Shown here in pieces: positions 1 to 29,382 of a DNA stretch of 64,000 nt. How positions within the stretch are numbered: the stretch's first letter is position 1; each line of letters opens with the position of its first letter. The notes under the pieces are model-generated. The model saw only the letters and a list, made by a program, of their open reading frames with translations. It did not search any database and was not told the DNA's origin. Both the position numbers and the translations under genes were made by a program. Origin of the DNA: a virus (taxonomy: Duplodnaviria; Caudoviricetes). The stretch covers positions 64,001-128,000 of the IMG/VR virus record IMGVR_UViG_3300027374_000478; one strand, given 5' to 3'.

Positions 1-360
1 GAATGTGTTGATTTTTTCAAGGAATTTTGAAGTTTTGTAAAGGTATTTAGGGATTTTAGAGAGTGATAAAATTGAGAAAAGCTAGGAAAATCAAGGGTCT
101 ACCGAACACAGTACCGAACTGAATTTTAAGGTTGATGTGTGAGTTGAACACATATGTACAAACACACGTTCGTAATATTGATCTAAAATGTAAATGTACC
201 CCCATATACAAACAAAAAACATATCATAATAGTATAGTATTATGGTATATTTACTGTCATTGTTATCGAATGTATGTTTTGTCTTTTGCAAAACAACTGG
301 TATGTTTAATACGGCGAACTATACCATACCAGTTTTGTTCGGTTTGAACATTTAGTAAAT

Positions 361-456
361 AATCCCCACTTTATCTAAAAAATAAATCAAAATAACGAAC
401 ATAATCCCCACTTTTACACAAGAAAACAATTAAAAAATGGCACAATCACCCACTTT
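361..456. repeat. three direct repeats AATC(A)CCCACTTT at ~42-bp spacing (iteron/operator-like)
   Basis: aatccccacttt at 361 and 403, aatcacccacttt at 444. Confidence 0.5.
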
Positions 457-531
457 GCCACAATACCAACGCCTTGCGTAGTTTTAATGATATTTTTAAA
501 CTGGGAGGTTGTCCGGTTATTCAATAGGTTA

Positions 532-729
532 CTAGCTCTGAATATATCCATCCCTTTCCAACTTTTCCACAATAGCGGTAGTAGTCCATTTATTCCGATT
601 CATTCCACTATCAGCCATAGCTTTTTCCACAGCTTCATAAATTGACTTCTGATATTTTACAGTATACGCAACCATATTTTCTTTATCGTATTTATCATTA
701 GCTTTCCTTTTTGCTTCATTGTATCCCAT
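532..729 (-). CDS. small ribbon-helix-helix-like DNA-binding protein
   Basis: 65 aa; 'KRKANDKYDKEN..YTVK....YEAVEKAMADSGMNRNKWTTTAIVEKL' is typical of Firmicutes MGE RHH regulators. Confidence 0.55.
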   Translation of the reverse strand: MGYNEAKRKANDKYDKENMVAYTVKYQKSIYEAVEKAMADSGMNRNKWTTTAIVEKLERDGYIQS

Positions 730-1062
730 CTATAATATACCTTCTACAAGCTCATATTTTCAATTTTAAGGCACGTTATACGTGTTTATATATAATCTAC
801 CACATAACATTTATTCTGTCAATTTTGGGCATATTGCAACGTTATATTGCTATGATAATAATTGTACAATATACACAAAAACAAATAATTATTTTTGTAC
901 AAAAATAAGCCTAAAATACACGTATTCCGTGCAAAAAGTTCTTGCATTTACCCGTATTACGTGCTATAATCTATATATAAGTTAAATATAAAATAAAACA
1001 TCAAAACAAAGAAGTATATAACAGCACACAAACACCACAACACAGAAAGGCAGGTACACAAT

Positions 1063-1236
1063 ATGAGCAAGCACACAATCACAATGAAAGAGATTCAGAA
1101 CATGATCAATAACGGTATTACAACATTTTCTAAAAAAGATGATAGTCCAAGAGGTTGTAAGACTGTAGCAGCAACTGAAATTCAAATAGGCGACAAAGTT
1201 GTAATTGACAACTACTTTACGCTTATTACTGAATAA
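1063..1236 (+). CDS. hypothetical protein, 57 aa (MSKHTITMKEIQ...)
   Basis: SD-like AAAGGCAGGT upstream; open frame to TAA 1234-1236; below the ORF-track cutoff. Confidence 0.55.
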   Translation: MSKHTITMKEIQNMINNGITTFSKKDDSPRGCKTVAATEIQIGDKVVIDNYFTLITE

Positions 1237-1295
1237 ATCCCCTGATGAGCAACGGTGAGAGCCGGCGAAACTACCCAAACAAGGGTAGTCGGGAT
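1237..1295 (+). ncRNA. hammerhead ribozyme, type I
   Basis: stem I atccc/gggat; core CTGATGA 1242-1248; stem II gc..cggt-gaga-gccg..gc; GAAA 1267-1270; stem III ctaccc/gggtag; GTC cleavage triplet ending at 1290. Confidence 0.9.
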
Positions 1296-1425
1296 AATAA
1301 CACGATCCTACATAAGTACCAAACAGCACATTGATAATTAAATAGACTTTATACCTGAGTTGTGATATACTATATATATATTATAGCAATTAAGTACAAG
1401 TCATTGTTTGAAAGTAGGTGATCAT

Positions 1426-1566
1426 ATGGGTATGACGAATAAGCAATTCCAAGGCTTTATAAGACTTGCTTTAGAGTTACTTGAAAAAGCATTACAAAAA
1501 TCTCCAGATAATGAAGAACTAAAAAAAGTAAGAGACATTTTTCAATCAATGTTAGAAGACGATTAA
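1426..1566 (+). CDS. hypothetical protein, 46 aa (MGMTNKQFQGFIRL...)
   Basis: SD AGGTGA; open frame. Confidence 0.55.
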   Translation: MGMTNKQFQGFIRLALELLEKALQKSPDNEELKKVRDIFQSMLEDD

Positions 1567-1699
1567 TTATTATCACAATTCACAATTCACGGTGTAAAGT
1601 CTATTAAATTATTAAGGCTTTACACCTTTTTAATATAGAAATAATCTGATATAATGAAATAATCAATATCAGCATATCAGGTTATAGGAAGGTGGACAC

Positions 1700-1912
1700 A
1701 TGGCAATAAGAACCAATAAAGAGTTATCACAGGCAATAGACGATTTAATTTTAAACTCTGGTATTAAAAAAACTTTTATATCTGAAAAGTTGGGTATAAG
1801 TCGGCAAGCACTAGATAACATGATGACAAAAAAGCATTTTTCTATTGATGATGCTAACAAAATCCTTAATATTATAGGATATGAAACAGAAACAAATATT
1901 AAAAAAAGTTGA
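1700..1912 (+). CDS. XRE/Cro-like helix-turn-helix protein
   Basis: 'GIKKTFISEKLGISRQALDNMM' HTH pattern; SD GGAAGGTGG. Confidence 0.75.
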   Translation: MAIRTNKELSQAIDDLILNSGIKKTFISEKLGISRQALDNMMTKKHFSIDDANKILNIIGYETETNIKKS

Positions 1913-1931
1913 AAAAAATCATTAAAAACAG

Positions 1932-1960
1932 TTGACAAGTAAAGGCAAATAGTCTATAAT
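1932..1960 (+). promoter_or_regulatory. consensus sigma70/SigA promoter
   Basis: TTGACA-17 bp-TATAAT. Confidence 0.8.
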
Positions 1961-1966
1961 AATACT

Positions 1967-3455
1967 TGTAAGGAACGCAAGGGAATATAAATCGGTATCA
2001 CGGCAGCATCAATAAGACCTGATACATTCTCAACATGGCAGTGTCAATAAGTCCAGGAGCGATAAAAGAAAAATCCCAGTTCCAAACGAAACTGGGAAAT
2101 TTCAAGAAAAGTGTATAAAACACTTCATCCTCAACAAATGAAGTATAACACAATTCTTGACAATCTGTCAATCGGCAGAAATTTCCCAAAACAAAGTAAC
2201 TATTAACGTCCTGTAAAGTGGAGTGCTAACAGGATCGTAACCAAGGCAAAGTAACAAGAGATTGCAAACGAGGTTAGAGAAAAGATAATTGATTCATTAA
2301 ATTTCCGCAACCTAACGGGGAAACGTGACAGATAGCAGCGTCAAAATGCTATCCGTGTTAACTGGACACGCTGACTACATCGGGGACGTGATAGTTCATA
2401 TCATATCAGACGTAGCAGGGAATACCATCCCAAACCAGAAAATCTATGAATATGTGTGAATGCGAGTAGGCAGAAACAAGAGTTTTGCGGTGACTGATTC
2501 TGAAACCGTGACCTGTGGGGTGTGGTAGCCGTAACGGGAACGAGAGACAATCTACTATAATATAGATAGCTCTTTTGATGATAATTTATCGCTGTAGAGG
2601 ATGGACAGGAAGAAAACACAAAACGATAGACTATATTATTTACAAGCGTTCACAAAAATAAATCCTTGTAAATATCATTGGTGGTTGTAAACCGTGGTTA
2701 TGGAAGGCTGAGAAATACGTCTTCCAACCGCTGACAAGCGGTATATAAATATACATAAGAAATCTTTAGAGAGTGTCAAGCAATAACGACACTCTCTTCA
2801 TTATTAAAAGCGGTCAACTGCTTTTCAAAAAGGAATGTGATGTTCAAGCGAGAAGGAAAAGAGAAATAAGTATTACATCCTGTGAGGGCTGCCCATGTGG
2901 TCATAAGTGCATATACCAGGCGCAAGGAAAAGTGATAACCCGTGACACAAGCTTTTTCATGTTTGAAAGATTGCACGTATAAAGAAGGAAGTAAAAATGT
3001 GACGCAAGATAAGGGCGTTAAACTTTCAATCGCTCAAGATCGGCAATGCGATCAATAAATTGTGCCGGCATCGGGAGCCTGTATATCTCCCGTAAAAAAC
3101 AGATTATACACGTTATGCAATGAGAACGAATCTTATAGGCTGGAATAGTCAGACGGTGCGGAAATCTAAGGAAAGTACGGTAAAAACTAACCAGGATAAA
3201 AATAAAAACCGTGTGCGTGTCCGTAAAGCGCATTTGCATAGATAAAAATATCTATAAAAGTTTGATAGCAAATAGAAACGGCGTCACAGGTTAGGGCTTA
3301 AGCTACTATGGCGGAGATAATTACACATAATTTTATTATTTACCATACCCATAAAAACAGAATCAAACATGAAGACGGCTCACAGAGTAAGAATTGATTG
3401 AGTGAACAAGTCGGGATCAATAAGTCAATCACCGCTTAAAAGGTGCTTAGTCTAC
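1967..3455 (+). ncRNA. candidate large (~1.5 kb) structured non-coding RNA
   Basis: follows a perfect promoter; no credible ORF/SD; GC-richer than its flanks; many local hairpins and long-range complementary segments. Confidence 0.55.
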
Positions 3456-3521
3456 ATCATTGAAAAGTCTCTTTTGTGGGCATGGATAAGTAATAAAAAA
3501 AGAATATAGAATTGTGGAGGT

Positions 3522-3875
3522 ATGACAATGAAAAATTTAATTGTAAAAGGCGAATACAATCCAGAAGTAAAAACGATGTATTATTACATTGAACCTGTAA
3601 CAGTTCATAAGTTGACAGCAACAACAGAAGAAAATAACAAAGCAACCTTAAAGGATTTTTATACAGCCGTTGAATGGTTGTTAAGTCGTGGATATGATGA
3701 ATATCACGAAGAATACAGTAACACCATAAATCCAGCACAACAAAATATATTTACTGCTTTGCGGTCTTATAGAGTAATACGGAATGGACACTACAAGTCA
3801 GTAAAGATTTTTCAAAGGGCTTTTGGAGGTTGTGTTATATCTGAATGCAACTTGCAGAATGAAACAAGCATGTAA
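3522..3875 (+). CDS. hypothetical protein
   Basis: 117 aa ORF, SD GGAGGT. Confidence 0.65.
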   Translation: MTMKNLIVKGEYNPEVKTMYYYIEPVTVHKLTATTEENNKATLKDFYTAVEWLLSRGYDEYHEEYSNTINPAQQNIFTALRSYRVIRNGHYKSVKIFQRAFGGCVISECNLQNETSM

Positions 3876-3902
3876 TCAATAAAACAATTATTTGAAAGGA
3901 AA

Positions 3903-4145
3903 ATGGTCATGAATAAAGCTATTGAAAAAATTAATAAATTCCTCAAAGCAACAACTAAAACGTTGGAATTGCGCTTTGATGATGGAATGTTTTTGCAACT
4001 TAAGAAACATGTCAAAAATGGAAAACATTTTCTTGAAGTCCATACATCCGGATATGATGGAACGTTTGAAATCACAGAAGCATTAGAGTGGATTAATTGG
4101 ACACTGTATGATTACTCGGCTAATGGATTTTTAAGAAATTTTTAA
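3903..4145 (+). CDS. hypothetical protein
   Basis: 80 aa ORF, SD AAAGGA. Confidence 0.65.
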   Translation: MVMNKAIEKINKFLKATTKTLELRFDDGMFLQLKKHVKNGKHFLEVHTSGYDGTFEITEALEWINWTLYDYSANGFLRNF

Positions 4146-4195
4146 CAATAAAAGGGATATTTAAAGGCAGATGGAAAATAAAACCGTCTGCCTTG

Positions 4196-4270
4196 CTTGT
4201 TATAATGCAGCCTGAAAGCCTGATCAACTTTCAGACAGTCCCAAGCCTGTAAAATGCAGAGGGTAACAAG
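4196..4270 (+). ncRNA. twister ribozyme (P1 type)
   Basis: P1 cttgtta/taacaag; TAA-TGCA-GC; P3 ctgaaag/ctttcag; acag-TCCCAAGC-ctgt; AAAA-TGCA-GAGGG, matching the twister core order. Confidence 0.85.
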
Positions 4271-4321
4271 AAATTAACAGAGAAATAGTTATTGATACAT
4301 AGATAATCAAAGAAAGGTTAA

Positions 4322-6007
4322 ATGGTGGAAATTATGTCAAATTACTATGATTACAGAGAAGTAAAGGTTATGATCGCTCACAAACTTATGTCCATGGAAG
4401 GTTGGAAAGTGTATGGATATACACCAGATGAAAGTGACAGCATGACAGATTATTGGAGTCCGGCACATTGGGATGGAGTAGCAGAAAAGAATGGTTATAT
4501 CTTATGCGTGGATGTTTACGGCGCAGCAGAACCGCAGGAAATCAGAAAATATAATTACTCTGGTTTTACATATGATCGCAGCATAGCGGAAAAAATCAAA
4601 AAGTTGGAAGCTATGACCGTTGAACGTGGAGCATCGGAAGCAGAAGAAGCAAGCGCAAAATTATCTATTGAACGTTTGCAGAAAAAAGCAGAAGAAACAA
4701 CGGAAAACGCAAGTAAATATATTGTTGTTGGTACAGTTCCCGGACATATGGCACACCCTCCAAAAATGAATTGGCATATTGAAAAAGATGGGATCATTAT
4801 TGCAAAGGGTAACGGCATTTTGAAATTTGCCCATATCTGGAAATATTACAATTATAACCGTGATATGGAATGGTTGAACGAATATAAGAAGGACAAAAAA
4901 GCATATGCCGATAAGCACACACAAGACCTTGTAAACCGTGGATATTATGACAGTGAGGAAGACGCAAGAAAGAATACAGAAAGACATATTGAGGATTTAG
5001 AGGAAGATATCAAGCTGATAGATAAGTTTGAGACATTCATCAATAAAATTGATACTACTTGTGGCGGTTTAATTGGAGAAGGTGACGGAACTGTATATGA
5101 AAAAGTAACCGTTACAGAATACAAAAAAGAAAATAAAGTTGTAGAAGATACGACTGGAAGCATTAAAGAGGGACAGCTTTTCATTCTGAAATCTAATTTC
5201 AATTATGGATGTTATAAAGGGCTTGTATATCGTATCCATGAAACAGAGAGAAACGGACAGAAACATTTTCATGCTTATAAACTAAATGGAAAACTTACAA
5301 AGGAATGTACAGGAAACGCAAGCCGTAATAACTATTGGTTTGTTGGTAGTGGTGATTCTGAATGCCTCACAAAATGGATTGAAAAGGGTTCTATTGCATG
5401 GTGTCATATTGAAGAGGTAAAAACGCCATATGAGGTGGAAAAGGTTGTAAAAAAGACTATTAAAGCAGAAAAGAAAAATACGACATCTACCACAACGGAA
5501 ACGGCACAGACAGAGGAAACAGACGTAAACGCCTATGCATATGAAGTATCAGAAGACACGGACACACGTACAGGAGAAAAAATATATCTTGTGAAGGTTG
5601 CGGAAAAATTGAGCCGTGAAGAGTATATAACCGTAAACAAGTATATTAAATCTTTGGGCGGATATTACTCAAAATTTAAACATGCGTTTTTATTCAAGGA
5701 AAATCCATCAGAGAAGTTGAACGTAATTATAGCGGAAACAACACAGACGGCAGAACCGGCACAGGAAGCACAAAGCACAAAGGAAGAACCAGAAGCGAAA
5801 AAAACAAGTATTTCCTATACAATTACAGAGGATCAGCACACGCAAACACACGCGAAAATCTGGATTGTGAAGCCTGAAAAGGAATTAAACAAGTCAGACT
5901 TTGCGGAGGTTAAGCGGAAACTTGCAACGCTACAAGGCTATTATAGCAGTTTTAAACGTGGTTTTATTTTTAAATATGATCCAACGGAAGCATTACAAAC
6001 AGGATAA
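4322..6007 (+). CDS. large multi-domain hypothetical protein (DUF2786-like segment; two repeated C-terminal domains)
   Basis: 561 aa; 'KIKKLEAMTVERGASEAE'; repeated 'Y.v.ED....T..KI.lVK....L....f..v......L.GYYS.FK..F.FK..P' domain. Confidence 0.75.
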   Translation: MVEIMSNYYDYREVKVMIAHKLMSMEGWKVYGYTPDESDSMTDYWSPAHWDGVAEKNGYILCVDVYGAAEPQEIRKYNYSGFTYDRSIAEKIKKLEAMTVERGASEAEEASAKLSIERLQKKAEETTENASKYIVVGTVPGHMAHPPKMNWHIEKDGIIIAKGNGILKFAHIWKYYNYNRDMEWLNEYKKDKKAYADKHTQDLVNRGYYDSEEDARKNTERHIEDLEEDIKLIDKFETFINKIDTTCGGLIGEGDGTVYEKVTVTEYKKENKVVEDTTGSIKEGQLFILKSNFNYGCYKGLVYRIHETERNGQKHFHAYKLNGKLTKECTGNASRNNYWFVGSGDSECLTKWIEKGSIAWCHIEEVKTPYEVEKVVKKTIKAEKKNTTSTTTETAQTEETDVNAYAYEVSEDTDTRTGEKIYLVKVAEKLSREEYITVNKYIKSLGGYYSKFKHAFLFKENPSEKLNVIIAETTQTAEPAQEAQSTKEEPEAKKTSISYTITEDQHTQTHAKIWIVKPEKELNKSDFAEVKRKLATLQGYYSSFKRGFIFKYDPTEALQTG

Positions 6008-6040
6008 TATAAAGACGGTTGAAATATACCGCCTTATAAA

Positions 6041-7690
6041 ATGGAGGAAATGATAATGTTACCAAAAGAGTTTTATCCTACACCACAAAATATTATTGAC
6101 AAGATGCTTTTTGATTTAGATTTTACAATGATAAAAAGTATTTTGGAACCATCGGCGGGTAAGGGAGATATAGTTGAGGCATTAAAGAAGAAAGAAGGAA
6201 ACCATAATAAATATTATGGCAAACAATACTATCAGTTTGATATTGATTGTATAGAAGCTGATCAGAATCTGCAGCATATTCTTAAAGGGAAAAATTTCCG
6301 TGTTGTTTATAATGATTTTCTTACATATAACACGATGAAGGAATACGATCTAATTATTATGAATCCGCCTTTTTCTAACGGTTGCAAACATCTTTTAAAG
6401 GCTTTAGAAATGCAACAAAGAAATGGCGGTGCGGTTGTGTGTCTTCTCAATGCGGAAACTTTAAAAAATCTATGTACAAATGATAGGCAGTATTTACAGC
6501 GTAAACTCACAGAATATAACGCAAAAATTGAGTTTATACAAAATGCTTTTCTGGATGCGGAACGGAAAACGGCGGTTGAAATTGCGCTTGTAAAGGTTCA
6601 GCTTCCAGAGGTGCAAAGAGAATCTTTTATATTGGAAGGATTAAGAGAAGCAAAAGATCAAAAAGAATTTCAGGCAGAGGAAAGCACAAAACTAATTGAT
6701 AGTGATTTTTTCAAGGCTATTGTAAAACAATATCAGTTAGAAGTGGAAGCAGGAATAAAATTGATTAAAGAATATTATGCAATGCAGCCGTTTATTTTGT
6801 CACAGTTTGGAAAAGACGAAAAGACAGGGGAAACGATACAAAAAGGCGGCTGTATTATCTCCATGACTTGTAGTAAAAATGGGCTTTCTGTTAATGAATA
6901 TATAAAAATGGTGCGGAGTAAATATTGGAATGCACTTTTTGAAAATAAAAGATTTATAGGGCAGCTTACAAATAATCTGCAAAGAGATTTTTATAATAAA
7001 GTGGAAGAATTAAGTAACTATGATTTTTCACTTTATAATATCTACCAGTTAAAAATTGATATACAGAAAAAAGTTGTTAAAGGAATAGAGGATACCATAA
7101 TAGATCTTTTTGATGAATTAAGTTATAAATACCATTGGCTTGATGAAACGTCAAAAAACATTCACTATTACAATGGATGGAAAACAAACAAGGGATGGAT
7201 AATCAATAAAAAAGTGATTATTCCTTTAAATGGTTTTTATGACCTTAATTATTCATGGGGAGGATTCAGACCGTCAAGGCATGATGTTGTAAGTAAATTA
7301 CAGGATATAGAAAAATGTTTTAACTATCTTGATGGAGGGCTAACAGAAGCGGTTGATCTGGAAGAATCCCTAAAGTTTGCAGAGGAATACGGAGAGACAA
7401 AGAATATACAGTTAAAGTATTTTACTGTCACATTCTACAAAAAAGGTACATGTCATATTGTATTTAACAATGACGAGTTACTGAAAAAATTTAATATATT
7501 TGGTTCTCAGCACAAAGGATGGTTGCCACCTTCCTACGGAAAGAAGGATTATAAAGATATGACAGCAGAAGAAAAAGCAGTTGTAAATGAGTTTGAAGGA
7601 GAAAAAGAGTATAGCAAAGTTATTTCTAATAAAGAGTATTACTTGTTTGATGGAAATAATCTGAATTTACTGGAAGAGAAAACGGCATAA
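6041..7690 (+). CDS. class I SAM-dependent DNA adenine methyltransferase, DUF4942-type
   Basis: FYPTP, LEPSAGKG (motif I), MNPPF (motif IV), C-terminal 'YF.V.FYKKGTCHI.F'. Confidence 0.85.
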   Translation: MEEMIMLPKEFYPTPQNIIDKMLFDLDFTMIKSILEPSAGKGDIVEALKKKEGNHNKYYGKQYYQFDIDCIEADQNLQHILKGKNFRVVYNDFLTYNTMKEYDLIIMNPPFSNGCKHLLKALEMQQRNGGAVVCLLNAETLKNLCTNDRQYLQRKLTEYNAKIEFIQNAFLDAERKTAVEIALVKVQLPEVQRESFILEGLREAKDQKEFQAEESTKLIDSDFFKAIVKQYQLEVEAGIKLIKEYYAMQPFILSQFGKDEKTGETIQKGGCIISMTCSKNGLSVNEYIKMVRSKYWNALFENKRFIGQLTNNLQRDFYNKVEELSNYDFSLYNIYQLKIDIQKKVVKGIEDTIIDLFDELSYKYHWLDETSKNIHYYNGWKTNKGWIINKKVIIPLNGFYDLNYSWGGFRPSRHDVVSKLQDIEKCFNYLDGGLTEAVDLEESLKFAEEYGETKNIQLKYFTVTFYKKGTCHIVFNNDELLKKFNIFGSQHKGWLPPSYGKKDYKDMTAEEKAVVNEFEGEKEYSKVISNKEYYLFDGNNLNLLEEKTA

Positions 7691-29014: not shown

Positions 29015-29198
29015 TATCAACAGAAACACAAAGACCTATCCTCAAACGGTGTTGGCGCACCATCGGATAGGCCTATACATAATAGAGCAGAACGCTCACT
29101 TGTATTTTACATATTATAATCATTTTGGTCAAGTGGTAAATTCAGGCGGTTCTGCAAAAATTCAAGAATTTAAAAGGAGAATAATTAATAAGAGATAT

Positions 29199-29272
29199 GG
29201 ATCTGAGGCTCAGTTGGTCAGAGCAACTGTCTCATAAACGATAGGTCTTGAGTTCAAGTCTCAACAGATTCA
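29199..29272 (+). tRNA. tRNA with CAT anticodon (Ile2 or elongator Met), imperfect anticodon stem, no encoded CCA
   Basis: acceptor GGATCTG/CAGATTC; D-arm GCTC-AGTTGGTCA-GAGC; loop CTCATAA; T-arm TTGAG-TTCAAGT-CTCAA. Confidence 0.85.
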
Positions 29273-29382
29273 TTAGATCAGTGTTTAATGACACTGTATT
29301 TTTTGCACCTATTTTTAGGAAATGAAAAGAGAAAAGTGTTAATAATGTTTGATTAAATACCAAAATAAAGAGGAGGGATAGA

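Follow-up and report, generated by a model that had tools for sequence, protein, structure and literature searches.

Comparative analysis of a 64,000-nt stretch of phage DNA (hereafter the window: bases 64001-128000 of the 159-kb IMG/VR provirus record IMGVR_UViG_3300027374_000478) indicated that nt 1932-2806 constitute a self-contained non-coding transcription unit, a conclusion well supported by the sequence evidence. The unit runs from promoter to terminator, and its predicted product of ~840 nt would comprise a leader of ~230 nt, a folded body of ~565 nt and the terminator, a division likewise well supported, with predicted ends. The folded RNA was previously uncatalogued, in that no Rfam family matches it. 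With a rough probability of 0.45, the unit is regarded here as an autonomous, antisense-controlled RNA gene whose body would act in trans, a reading favoured over that of a cis-acting leader because the unit has its own terminator, is dispensable in relatives and carries a swappable body. A prior examination of the letters alone (the sequence-only reading) had proposed a giant ncRNA of ~1.5 kb at this location; a new structured ncRNA was upheld, but its length was revised to the ~840 nt that end at a terminator at 2768-2806, and the alternative suggestion of a cluster of ncRNAs came closer, the unit apparently combining a sense RNA with a predicted antisense sRNA.

Within the record, all genes of the first 64 kb lie on the minus strand and every later gene on the plus strand, which places the divergence point of two arms at window positions 1-3500; the RNA unit heads the co-directional plus-strand arm of 95 kb. 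Related DNA was found in mouse-gut Lachnospiraceae, namely two MAGs and the isolate 'Bacterium 1xD42-87', and every run that contains the stretch and gives an organism was from mouse gut. By means of neighbouring proteins, and of exact 18- to 20-mers taken from the best-conserved part, ~10 distinct homologous loci were gathered, representing ~6 independent lineages, all of them mouse-gut phages. A blastn search with 1900-3520 yielded no match among public phage and plasmid records, and BLAST of the core against 401 Lachnospiraceae genomes returned the known lysogen, a leader-only match in G190 and short chance matches, and nothing more. Searches with a gapped pattern of the P9 loop (see below) recovered known loci and chance coding matches only, while a profile HMM and covariance model R1 detected no more copies in other related loci. 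The known range of the folded RNA is very narrow. As judged by alignment, the homologous loci form a mosaic: L005 matches 1913-3071; L006, L015, L020 and L021 match from ~1600 to 2878 and then jump to 3325-3499; L018 matches 2190-2780 and L007 2180-2438; L019 has diverged further (~78% identity) and carries an extra 115 nt inserted within one hairpin; and L023 has 2142-2500 only.

The features at and immediately upstream of the start of the unit are the following:

1647-1655, plus strand: extended -10 promoter (TGaTATAAT) of the HTH gene
1700-1912, plus strand: Xre-type HTH gene, 70 aa, with weak HTH_3 and PHROG repressor matches and codon-phased substitutions
1932-1960, plus strand: sense promoter TTGACA-17-TATAAT, a 12/12 match, kept in L005, L006, L015, L016, L020 and L021

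The promoter, behind which the sequence-only reading had placed its RNA, is present and kept in six relatives. It is bracketed by an inverted repeat, ACAAGTA (1935-1941) and TACTTGT (1963-1969); this repeat and a palindrome within the leader, TTGACAatcTGTCAA, are possibly operators, so that the 'perfect' promoter may be repressible. Other genes replace the HTH gene in L005 and G190, so that the RNA does not have it as a constant neighbour, and the small proteins flanking the unit gave matches either to HTH_3 or to nothing. Further upstream, 3' of a small gene at 1427-1567, a strong terminator hairpin (1591-1634, plus strand; z-score -6.5) is kept in nearly all relatives and marks where the exchangeable block begins on the left; in one contig from an RNA library, 1634 is joined to 3457.

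No credible ORF was found throughout 1961-3520, all frames being of 73 aa or fewer, without an SD and not conserved, in agreement with the prior claim that no SD-led ORF is present. Substitutions relative to four relatives were distributed evenly over the three codon phases (p 0.50-0.79), unlike those in the neighbouring 561-aa gene and the HTH gene, each of which exhibited a third-position excess (p 5e-8 and p 0.013 respectively), a difference which indicates that the stretch is non-coding. Protein-coding conservation, named beforehand as one of the findings that would speak against an RNA, was thus absent from the homologues, which revealed neither codon phase nor a conserved ORF. Hidden coding of another kind, whether as small peptides, a type I toxin-antitoxin pair or another genetic code, was considered highly improbable: a 28-aa ORF does lie under the antisense transcript of L012, but no SD-led or conserved ORF exists, the substitutions are without codon phase, translation table 11 serves well for the remainder of the window, and the one frame open through the near-invariant segment of the body (2206-2295) has no start codon and acquires in-frame stops in L007, L018 and L019. 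When sought specifically as part of a type I toxin-antitoxin pair, no ORF was present within 2064-2135; a 22-codon frame at 2138-2206 has no SD, and L005 and L006 do not share its ATG.

The G+C content of the region (0.37-0.44, compared with ~0.30 in the flanks) was accompanied by an excess of local complementarity: within 150 nt, 30 complementary 7-mers were counted against 12.4 +/- 4.2 in dinucleotide shuffles, and 8 complementary 9-mers against 0.7. The local helices listed in the sequence-only reading were all located at the coordinates it quoted. Its description of the region as highly structured holds for ~1967-2806 but not beyond, folding-energy z-scores being ~0 over 2776-3525 on both strands; among sliding windows, those at 2026-2250 and 2626-2850 of the plus strand were the only ones with outstanding folding energies.

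The leader, which yielded folding z-scores of -3.8 to -4.6, contains the following features:

1967-2195, plus strand: leader module
1966-1984, plus strand: 5' hairpin
2001-2020 and 2036-2056, plus strand: two copies of the motif GCAG-YR-TCAATAAG
2093-2103/2178-2188, plus strand: 11-bp helix
2064-2135, minus strand: predicted antisense sRNA of ~70 nt, one hairpin followed by an intrinsic terminator, with predicted ends
2097->2074 (stem) and 2073->2064 (T-run, TTTTTCTTTT), minus strand: antisense terminator
2142-2171 (2171->2142), minus strand: antisense sRNA promoter TTGACA-18-TATACT, TG-extended, an 11/12 match
2147-2161: palindrome TTGACAatcTGTCAA, overlapping the antisense -35

The antisense promoter was identical at the -35 in 8/8 homologues, with a spacer of 17-18 nt and a -10 of TATACT in seven and TACACT in one. 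More telling was the terminator stem, which on the minus strand is perfect in 8/8 homologues (-13.8 to -14.6 kcal/mol), being kept via G-U pairs of that strand; the plus-strand counterparts of these pairs are A-C or C-A, so that there the same stem carries a mismatch in 7/8 homologues (-5.8 to -8.9 kcal/mol). Such strand-specific conservation of pairing argues for a real antisense sRNA of ~70 nt, complementary to nt +100 to +170 of the sense RNA, and hence for a predicted antisense sRNA gene, convergent with the sense RNA, which the sequence-only reading had missed. The leader module is common to G190 (L029) and L043, where it precedes a different body, and is replaced in L007, L018 and L019.

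The two copies of GCAG-YR-TCAATAAG stand 35 nt apart early in the sense RNA, with weaker copies downstream at 3049-3061 and 3411-3425, and both are deleted in L016 and L020. The tandem TCAATAAG motif recurs behind a perfect promoter in the distant relative L012 (L012:7255-7300), against a background of 0.016 per 300 nt, and may represent a putative protein-binding site on RNA or DNA.

The body was the part of the region with the fewest substitutions, 0-5 differences per 150 nt as opposed to 7-21 in the flanks. Its predicted elements, all on the plus strand, are listed below together with the pairings found at the covarying positions:

2196-2760, plus strand: folded body
2206-2295, plus strand: near-invariant segment of 90 nt
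2209-2214/2229-2234, plus strand: P1
2251-2255/2261-2265, plus strand: P2
2302-2307/2316-2321, plus strand: P3
2331-2337/2347-2353, plus strand: P4, with G-C, A-U and G-U at one pair
2354-2358/2366-2370, plus strand: P5, as CGTGT/ACACG, TATGT/ACATA and ATGG/CCAT
2372-2378/2412-2417, plus strand: P6
2389-2393/2399-2403, plus strand: P7
2418-2421/2428-2431, plus strand: P8, as GGGA/TCCC, GCGA/TCGC, GAGA/TCTC and ACGA/TTGT, with a conserved ATRCCA loop
2487-2491/2505-2509, plus strand: P9, as CGGT/ACCG, TGGT/ACCA and CAAG/CTTG, with a conserved 13-nt loop
2512-2516/2534-2538, plus strand: P10, which covaries
2540-2550/2685-2695, plus strand: P11, a long covarying helix joining the conserved blocks GAGAGACAAT and TTGTAAACC
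2637-2676, plus strand: lineage-specific hairpin

At least nine helices were recorded, most of them with compensatory changes, and the near-invariant segment is nearly identical even in L007 and L019, although the lineages differ by ~20% elsewhere. For P3-P8, a covariance model was built from close sequences and then used to realign all homologues. Compensatory changes, affecting both partners, were evident in 17/33 pairs, and 97.5% of cells were paired, compared with 31-59% when the partners were slid; 0/500 shuffles reached these values. These counts lean towards the model to which the alignment was fitted, but the compensations are also visible in plain MAFFT alignments. The covariation is thin because only ~6 independent lineages are available, and it amounts to good evidence for the P3-P8 fold, not proof. 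The expectation that helices would covary among collected homologues was thereby borne out. Several conserved pairs of the body are G-U, which fits an RNA transcribed from the plus strand.

A body devoid of function, the unit then being a regulatory leader (promoter, antisense and terminator) with mosaic, hairpin-rich filler derived from phage recombination, would account for the strong mosaicism of the region, for the indels at its module borders and for L023, in which a deletion has fused an HTH gene to the leader and the body is cut at 2500, leaving what is, by its sequence, a decayed remnant; the 3' 650 nt behave in just such a manner. It is nevertheless improbable, in that no other stretch of the region is as well conserved as the body, which exceeds even the neighbouring genes, with many helices kept by compensatory changes and with invariant loops. 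The ORF running into the leader of L023 had prompted consideration of a coding relic (a remnant of an HTH gene) at 2111-2206, which was dropped since L043 contains that gene intact and L023 is therefore a deletion fusion.

Downstream of the body the following features were distinguished:

2768-2806, plus strand: predicted terminator T1, a 10-bp stem (2768-2777/2788-2797) with a U-rich tail; folding z-score -5.8
2807-2878, plus strand: another conserved hairpin (2807-2828), together with conserved sequence of ~50 nt, beyond T1
2879-3324, no strand assigned: lineage-specific insert with a folding z-score of ~0 and no conserved ORF
3325-3459, plus strand: semi-conserved tail before the first gene cassette, with no folding signal
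3460-3499, plus strand: 40-nt element with the first inter-cassette junction palindrome, a single copy in the window

The T1 stem exhibits compensatory changes around a freely varying loop, and its U-rich tail is present in every homologue that reaches T1, including L019, G190 and L043; it was missed by the terminator scan because its loop is 10 nt long. The sequence at 2807-2878 is nearly identical in L005, L006, L015, L020, L021, G190 and L043 and different in L018. The distance from a fixed anchor to the first junction element ranges from 706 to 1210 nt across relatives, which identifies 2879-3324 as a lineage-specific insert; it is absent from L006, L015, L020 and L021 and shared by L005 to 3071 only, and L008 has 2807-3071 elsewhere. 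Positions 3325-3459 are 72-88% identical in L005, L006, L015, L020 and L021 and different in L018, while the element at 3460-3499, in which no convincing sigma-A promoter match was found, is 95-100% identical in L008, L018, L021 and L043 despite differing flanks. On these comparisons the ~650 nt at 2807-3460 are a mosaic spacer that would lie outside the fold of the RNA.

The long-range pairs by which the 1.5-kb structure had been held together (2057/3029, 2495/3358, 2518/3341 and 2511/3285) do exist, but at chance level: at separations above 300 nt, 47 complementary 7-mers compare with 42 +/- 9 in shuffles, and 13 8-mers with 10.8 +/- 4.1. The DNA that contains their 3' partners is missing from L006, L015, L020 and L021 or differs in L018. 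The nested pairs 2495/3358 and 2518/3341 were rejected as uncompensated, with a partner missing in L018, as was a closing helix 1997-2011/2508-2527 proposed by RNAalifold, which is impossible in L016 and L020, both without the 5' arm.

A scan between T1 and the first gene (start near 3522) revealed no recognisable promoter, so that the downstream genes may need read-through, a circumstance favouring a cis role. As a leader of that type, the RNA would stay with the polymerase or switch conformation and so decide passage beyond T1 and later terminators into the 95-kb early arm, a case of processive antitermination or of attenuation that the antisense sRNA would switch off in lysogens. This serious rival, doubtful on the whole, suits the position of the unit at the head of an arm whose genes all point in the same direction and the enrichment of plus-strand terminator-like hairpins in the arm (15 as opposed to 5 +/- 2.2). 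It sits less well with the internal near-consensus promoters of that arm, with the 230-650 nt of poorly conserved spacer after T1, and with the placing of T1 itself, 600 nt away from the antisense target and with no terminator directly after that target.

Exchange of the body between relatives bears on the same question. G190 (L029) and L043 have the same leader and antisense gene, T1, tail and junction, between which lies an unrelated, ORF-free body of 554 nt (L029, minus strand, 985-1500), 81% conserved between the two and with a predicted fold of -124 kcal/mol. Conversely, the core of the body studied here is found behind other leaders in L007, L018 and L019. L011 keeps the downstream 561-aa gene and is missing the unit, and L012 keeps the same gene with only a short version of the leader and antisense arrangement, without the body; that version has a perfect promoter, two copies of the TCAATAAG motif and the 28-aa ORF, opposed by a convergent perfect promoter and a minus-strand terminator on the antisense side. 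The unit therefore behaves as an exchangeable cassette, and the arrangements in L011 and L012 make the leader-antisense device look older and more widespread, the large body resembling cargo. Exchangeable alleles would suit RNA-protein specificity pairs, as a cis-acting leader might require; however, L011 and L012 have the same early genes without the body, and no partner gene co-occurs consistently with the RNA unit among the relatives. In L043, a 162-kb relative, the leader is separated from the alternative body by ~2 kb (L043:4385-6395) with a number of small HTH genes, part of them oppositely oriented, an arrangement that looks like a rearranged or duplicated control region.

Comparison with known large RNAs was undertaken by covariance model and by architecture. 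At gathering thresholds, cmscan of the whole window identified tRNA only, with no match to the GOLLD, ROOL, OLE or raiA models, and when 1-4500 was scanned permissively against Rfam (E up to 10), nothing above noise appeared in 1961-3460. Neither group I nor group II introns gave an Rfam match, and no split ORF flanks the region. The Rfam check suggested beforehand, against GOLLD, ROOL, OLE and introns, thus marks the RNA as new to that database. It resembles ROOL and GOLLD, the large ornate RNAs of prophages (Rfam; PMC5737381, PMC12286853), in being a multi-helix ncRNA of more than 500 nt from Firmicutes prophages, in which loops and junctions are conserved whereas the hairpins at the periphery vary. 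It differs from them in the antisense sRNA gene of its leader, its exchangeable body and its very narrow range, and whereas GOLLD and ROOL are typically (not strictly) found beside prophage tRNA genes, the only tRNA of the window is at 29198-29273.

The cis-acting reading has its closest precedents among the large RNA antiterminators and long attenuator leaders that head Gram-positive mobile-element operons (PMC8191782, PMC13401043). Both conAn2, the large RNA (260-600 nt) of the conAn processive antitermination system (PMC8191782), and the pLS20 zipper-type leader are, like the present unit at the head of its 95-kb plus-strand arm, large structured RNAs that start a very long co-directional operon (PMC8191782, PMC13401043), and conAn2 alleles are likewise poorly conserved between elements. 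By way of contrast, the RNA described here comes with a terminator of its own, and relatives can dispense with the RNA. When all six frames of the complete 159-kb record were searched for the ConAn1 domain (Pfam pXO2-34, PF17362), no match was obtained at E up to 1; ConAn1 being absent from the phage, membership of the conAn system was rejected, and this absence weighs against the cis-acting reading as well.

A shorter type of RNA likewise transcribed from a strong promoter in a prophage control region, and stopping before the downstream genes, is represented by P4 CI RNA and P1/P7 c4 RNA, which confer RNA-based immunity, and by lambda 6S and StxS, brief terminated products of constantly active phage promoters (PMC7547250); here too the alleles differ between related phages. 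Those RNAs are of 70-200 nt and act via complementary sites in the same leader, but no complementary leader sites of the P4 CI/c4 kind were found here.

The arrangement of the leader is that of countertranscript control, established for pCF10 prgQ/Anti-Q and, as attenuation, for pIP501, pT181 and pAMbeta1. As in those systems, convergent promoters stand ~170 nt apart and a short terminated antisense RNA opposes the 5' part of a longer sense RNA that may end at a downstream terminator; a predicted antisense RNA gene occupies the sense leader in 8/8 homologues. Unlike pIP501 and pT181, no attenuator directly follows the antisense target and no rep gene follows; a scan between 2136 and 2767 revealed no plus-strand terminator-like site, and a folded body of ~565 nt separates target from terminator. 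The prgQ sense RNA of pCF10 encodes an inhibitor peptide and ends at IRS1 unless read through, whereas the present sense RNA has no conserved ORF and no inhibitor peptide, though T1 is present.

The pairing of a sense RNA with a short antisense RNA near its 5' end also recalls RNA II and RNA I, and the unit lies at a strand switch near the minimum of the cumulative GC skew, as might suit an origin transcript or a pre-primer of the ColE1 type, whose copy-number inhibitor would be the antisense sRNA. Such replication control is very improbable: the turn in GC skew coincides with the switch in gene orientation and may merely reflect that, the unit is missing or swapped in close relatives, and no origin features or replication genes adjoin it.

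Signs of transcription came from two sources. RNA-library contigs from four studies contain 1336-3471 or relatives at 90-99% identity, and some run from the body across T1, although such contigs give no strand, ends or level and may derive from DNA carry-over. In three of the four RNA runs contigs were absent over 4540-7200, but this gap was given no weight, since the runs were chosen with the present stretch and contigs cannot show absence. The second source was a CRISPR array in a Lachnospiraceae MAG, L022 (array L022:5754-8000; cas genes L022:2378-5093), with at least 31 repeats of 36 nt and adjoining cas1, cas2 and csm6, by which the locus was assigned to type III-A. One spacer, of 38 nt, matches 2245-2284, within the body, in the sense orientation. 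The repeat end ...ACGGAAAC, which we take to be that of a type III-A repeat, together with the orientation of the cas genes, indicates transcription of the array from the opposite strand; if this direction is correct, the crRNA would pair with the plus-strand body RNA. Type III immunity requires pairing of the crRNA with a target RNA, and the spacer thus provides independent but indirect support for transcription of the body. A second L022 spacer has a match of 17-20 nt, in the same sense, to the terminator hairpin of the preceding gene (1618-1634).

If the favoured reading of an autonomous gene acting in trans is correct, the consensus sigma-A promoter would start the ~840-nt sense RNA, T1 would end the unit, and the convergent ~70-nt antisense sRNA would pair with sense nt +100 to +170 and set the level of full-length sense RNA, either through duplex formation (RNase III cleavage or refolding) or through interference between the convergent promoters. 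The folded body would be the product, a trans-acting RNA carried as an accessory, exchangeable cassette as ROOL and GOLLD are in other prophages, and might bind a host or phage factor, form an RNA-only assembly, act as a catalyst, or serve as a decoy in defence or counter-defence. Searches for targets in trans found complementary 12-mers elsewhere in the phage at chance level and no match to the P1 loop in three host genomes.

Bacterial and phage RNAs of more than 500 nt with conserved architecture are rare, and the known classes (ribozymes, OLE and the ROOL/GOLLD cages) are all unusual; three features of the present RNA, namely a built-in antisense sRNA gene, a body swapped within the same frame and the first position in an early arm, are not described for those classes. 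Were the body to act in trans, phages would trade RNA cargo in the way they trade protein cassettes; were it to act in cis, it would constitute a large device of a new kind, for the antitermination or attenuation of a 95-kb operon. A bolder extension, put forward with considerable reserve, is that the leader-antisense-terminator frame is the standard expression cassette of these phages and each of the exchangeable bodies of ~550 nt is a large functional RNA of its own new kind (for example an anti-defence decoy, a ribozyme or an RNA-only assembly), traded like protein cassettes and exposed enough for type III CRISPR of the host to hit it. The RNA should be directly testable, because the isolate from which L024 derives, Bacterium 1xD42-87 with the L024/L005 prophage, appears to be a lysogen in culture.

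Two further motifs were observed on the plus strand on either side of the unit. Directly 3' of the stop codon of the ORF at 1063-1236, a hammerhead-like motif (1237-1295) combines CUGAUGAG, CGAAAC and GUC with three stems, its sole model match being a weak one to the RAGATH-1 hammerhead (22 bits, E 0.074). A type-P1 twister ribozyme at 4199-4267, in the interval that precedes the 561-aa gene, scored 63.5 bits (gathering 67.2; E 1.6e-14) with its core nucleotides all in place, and the intergenic region around it is 88-94% conserved in relatives.
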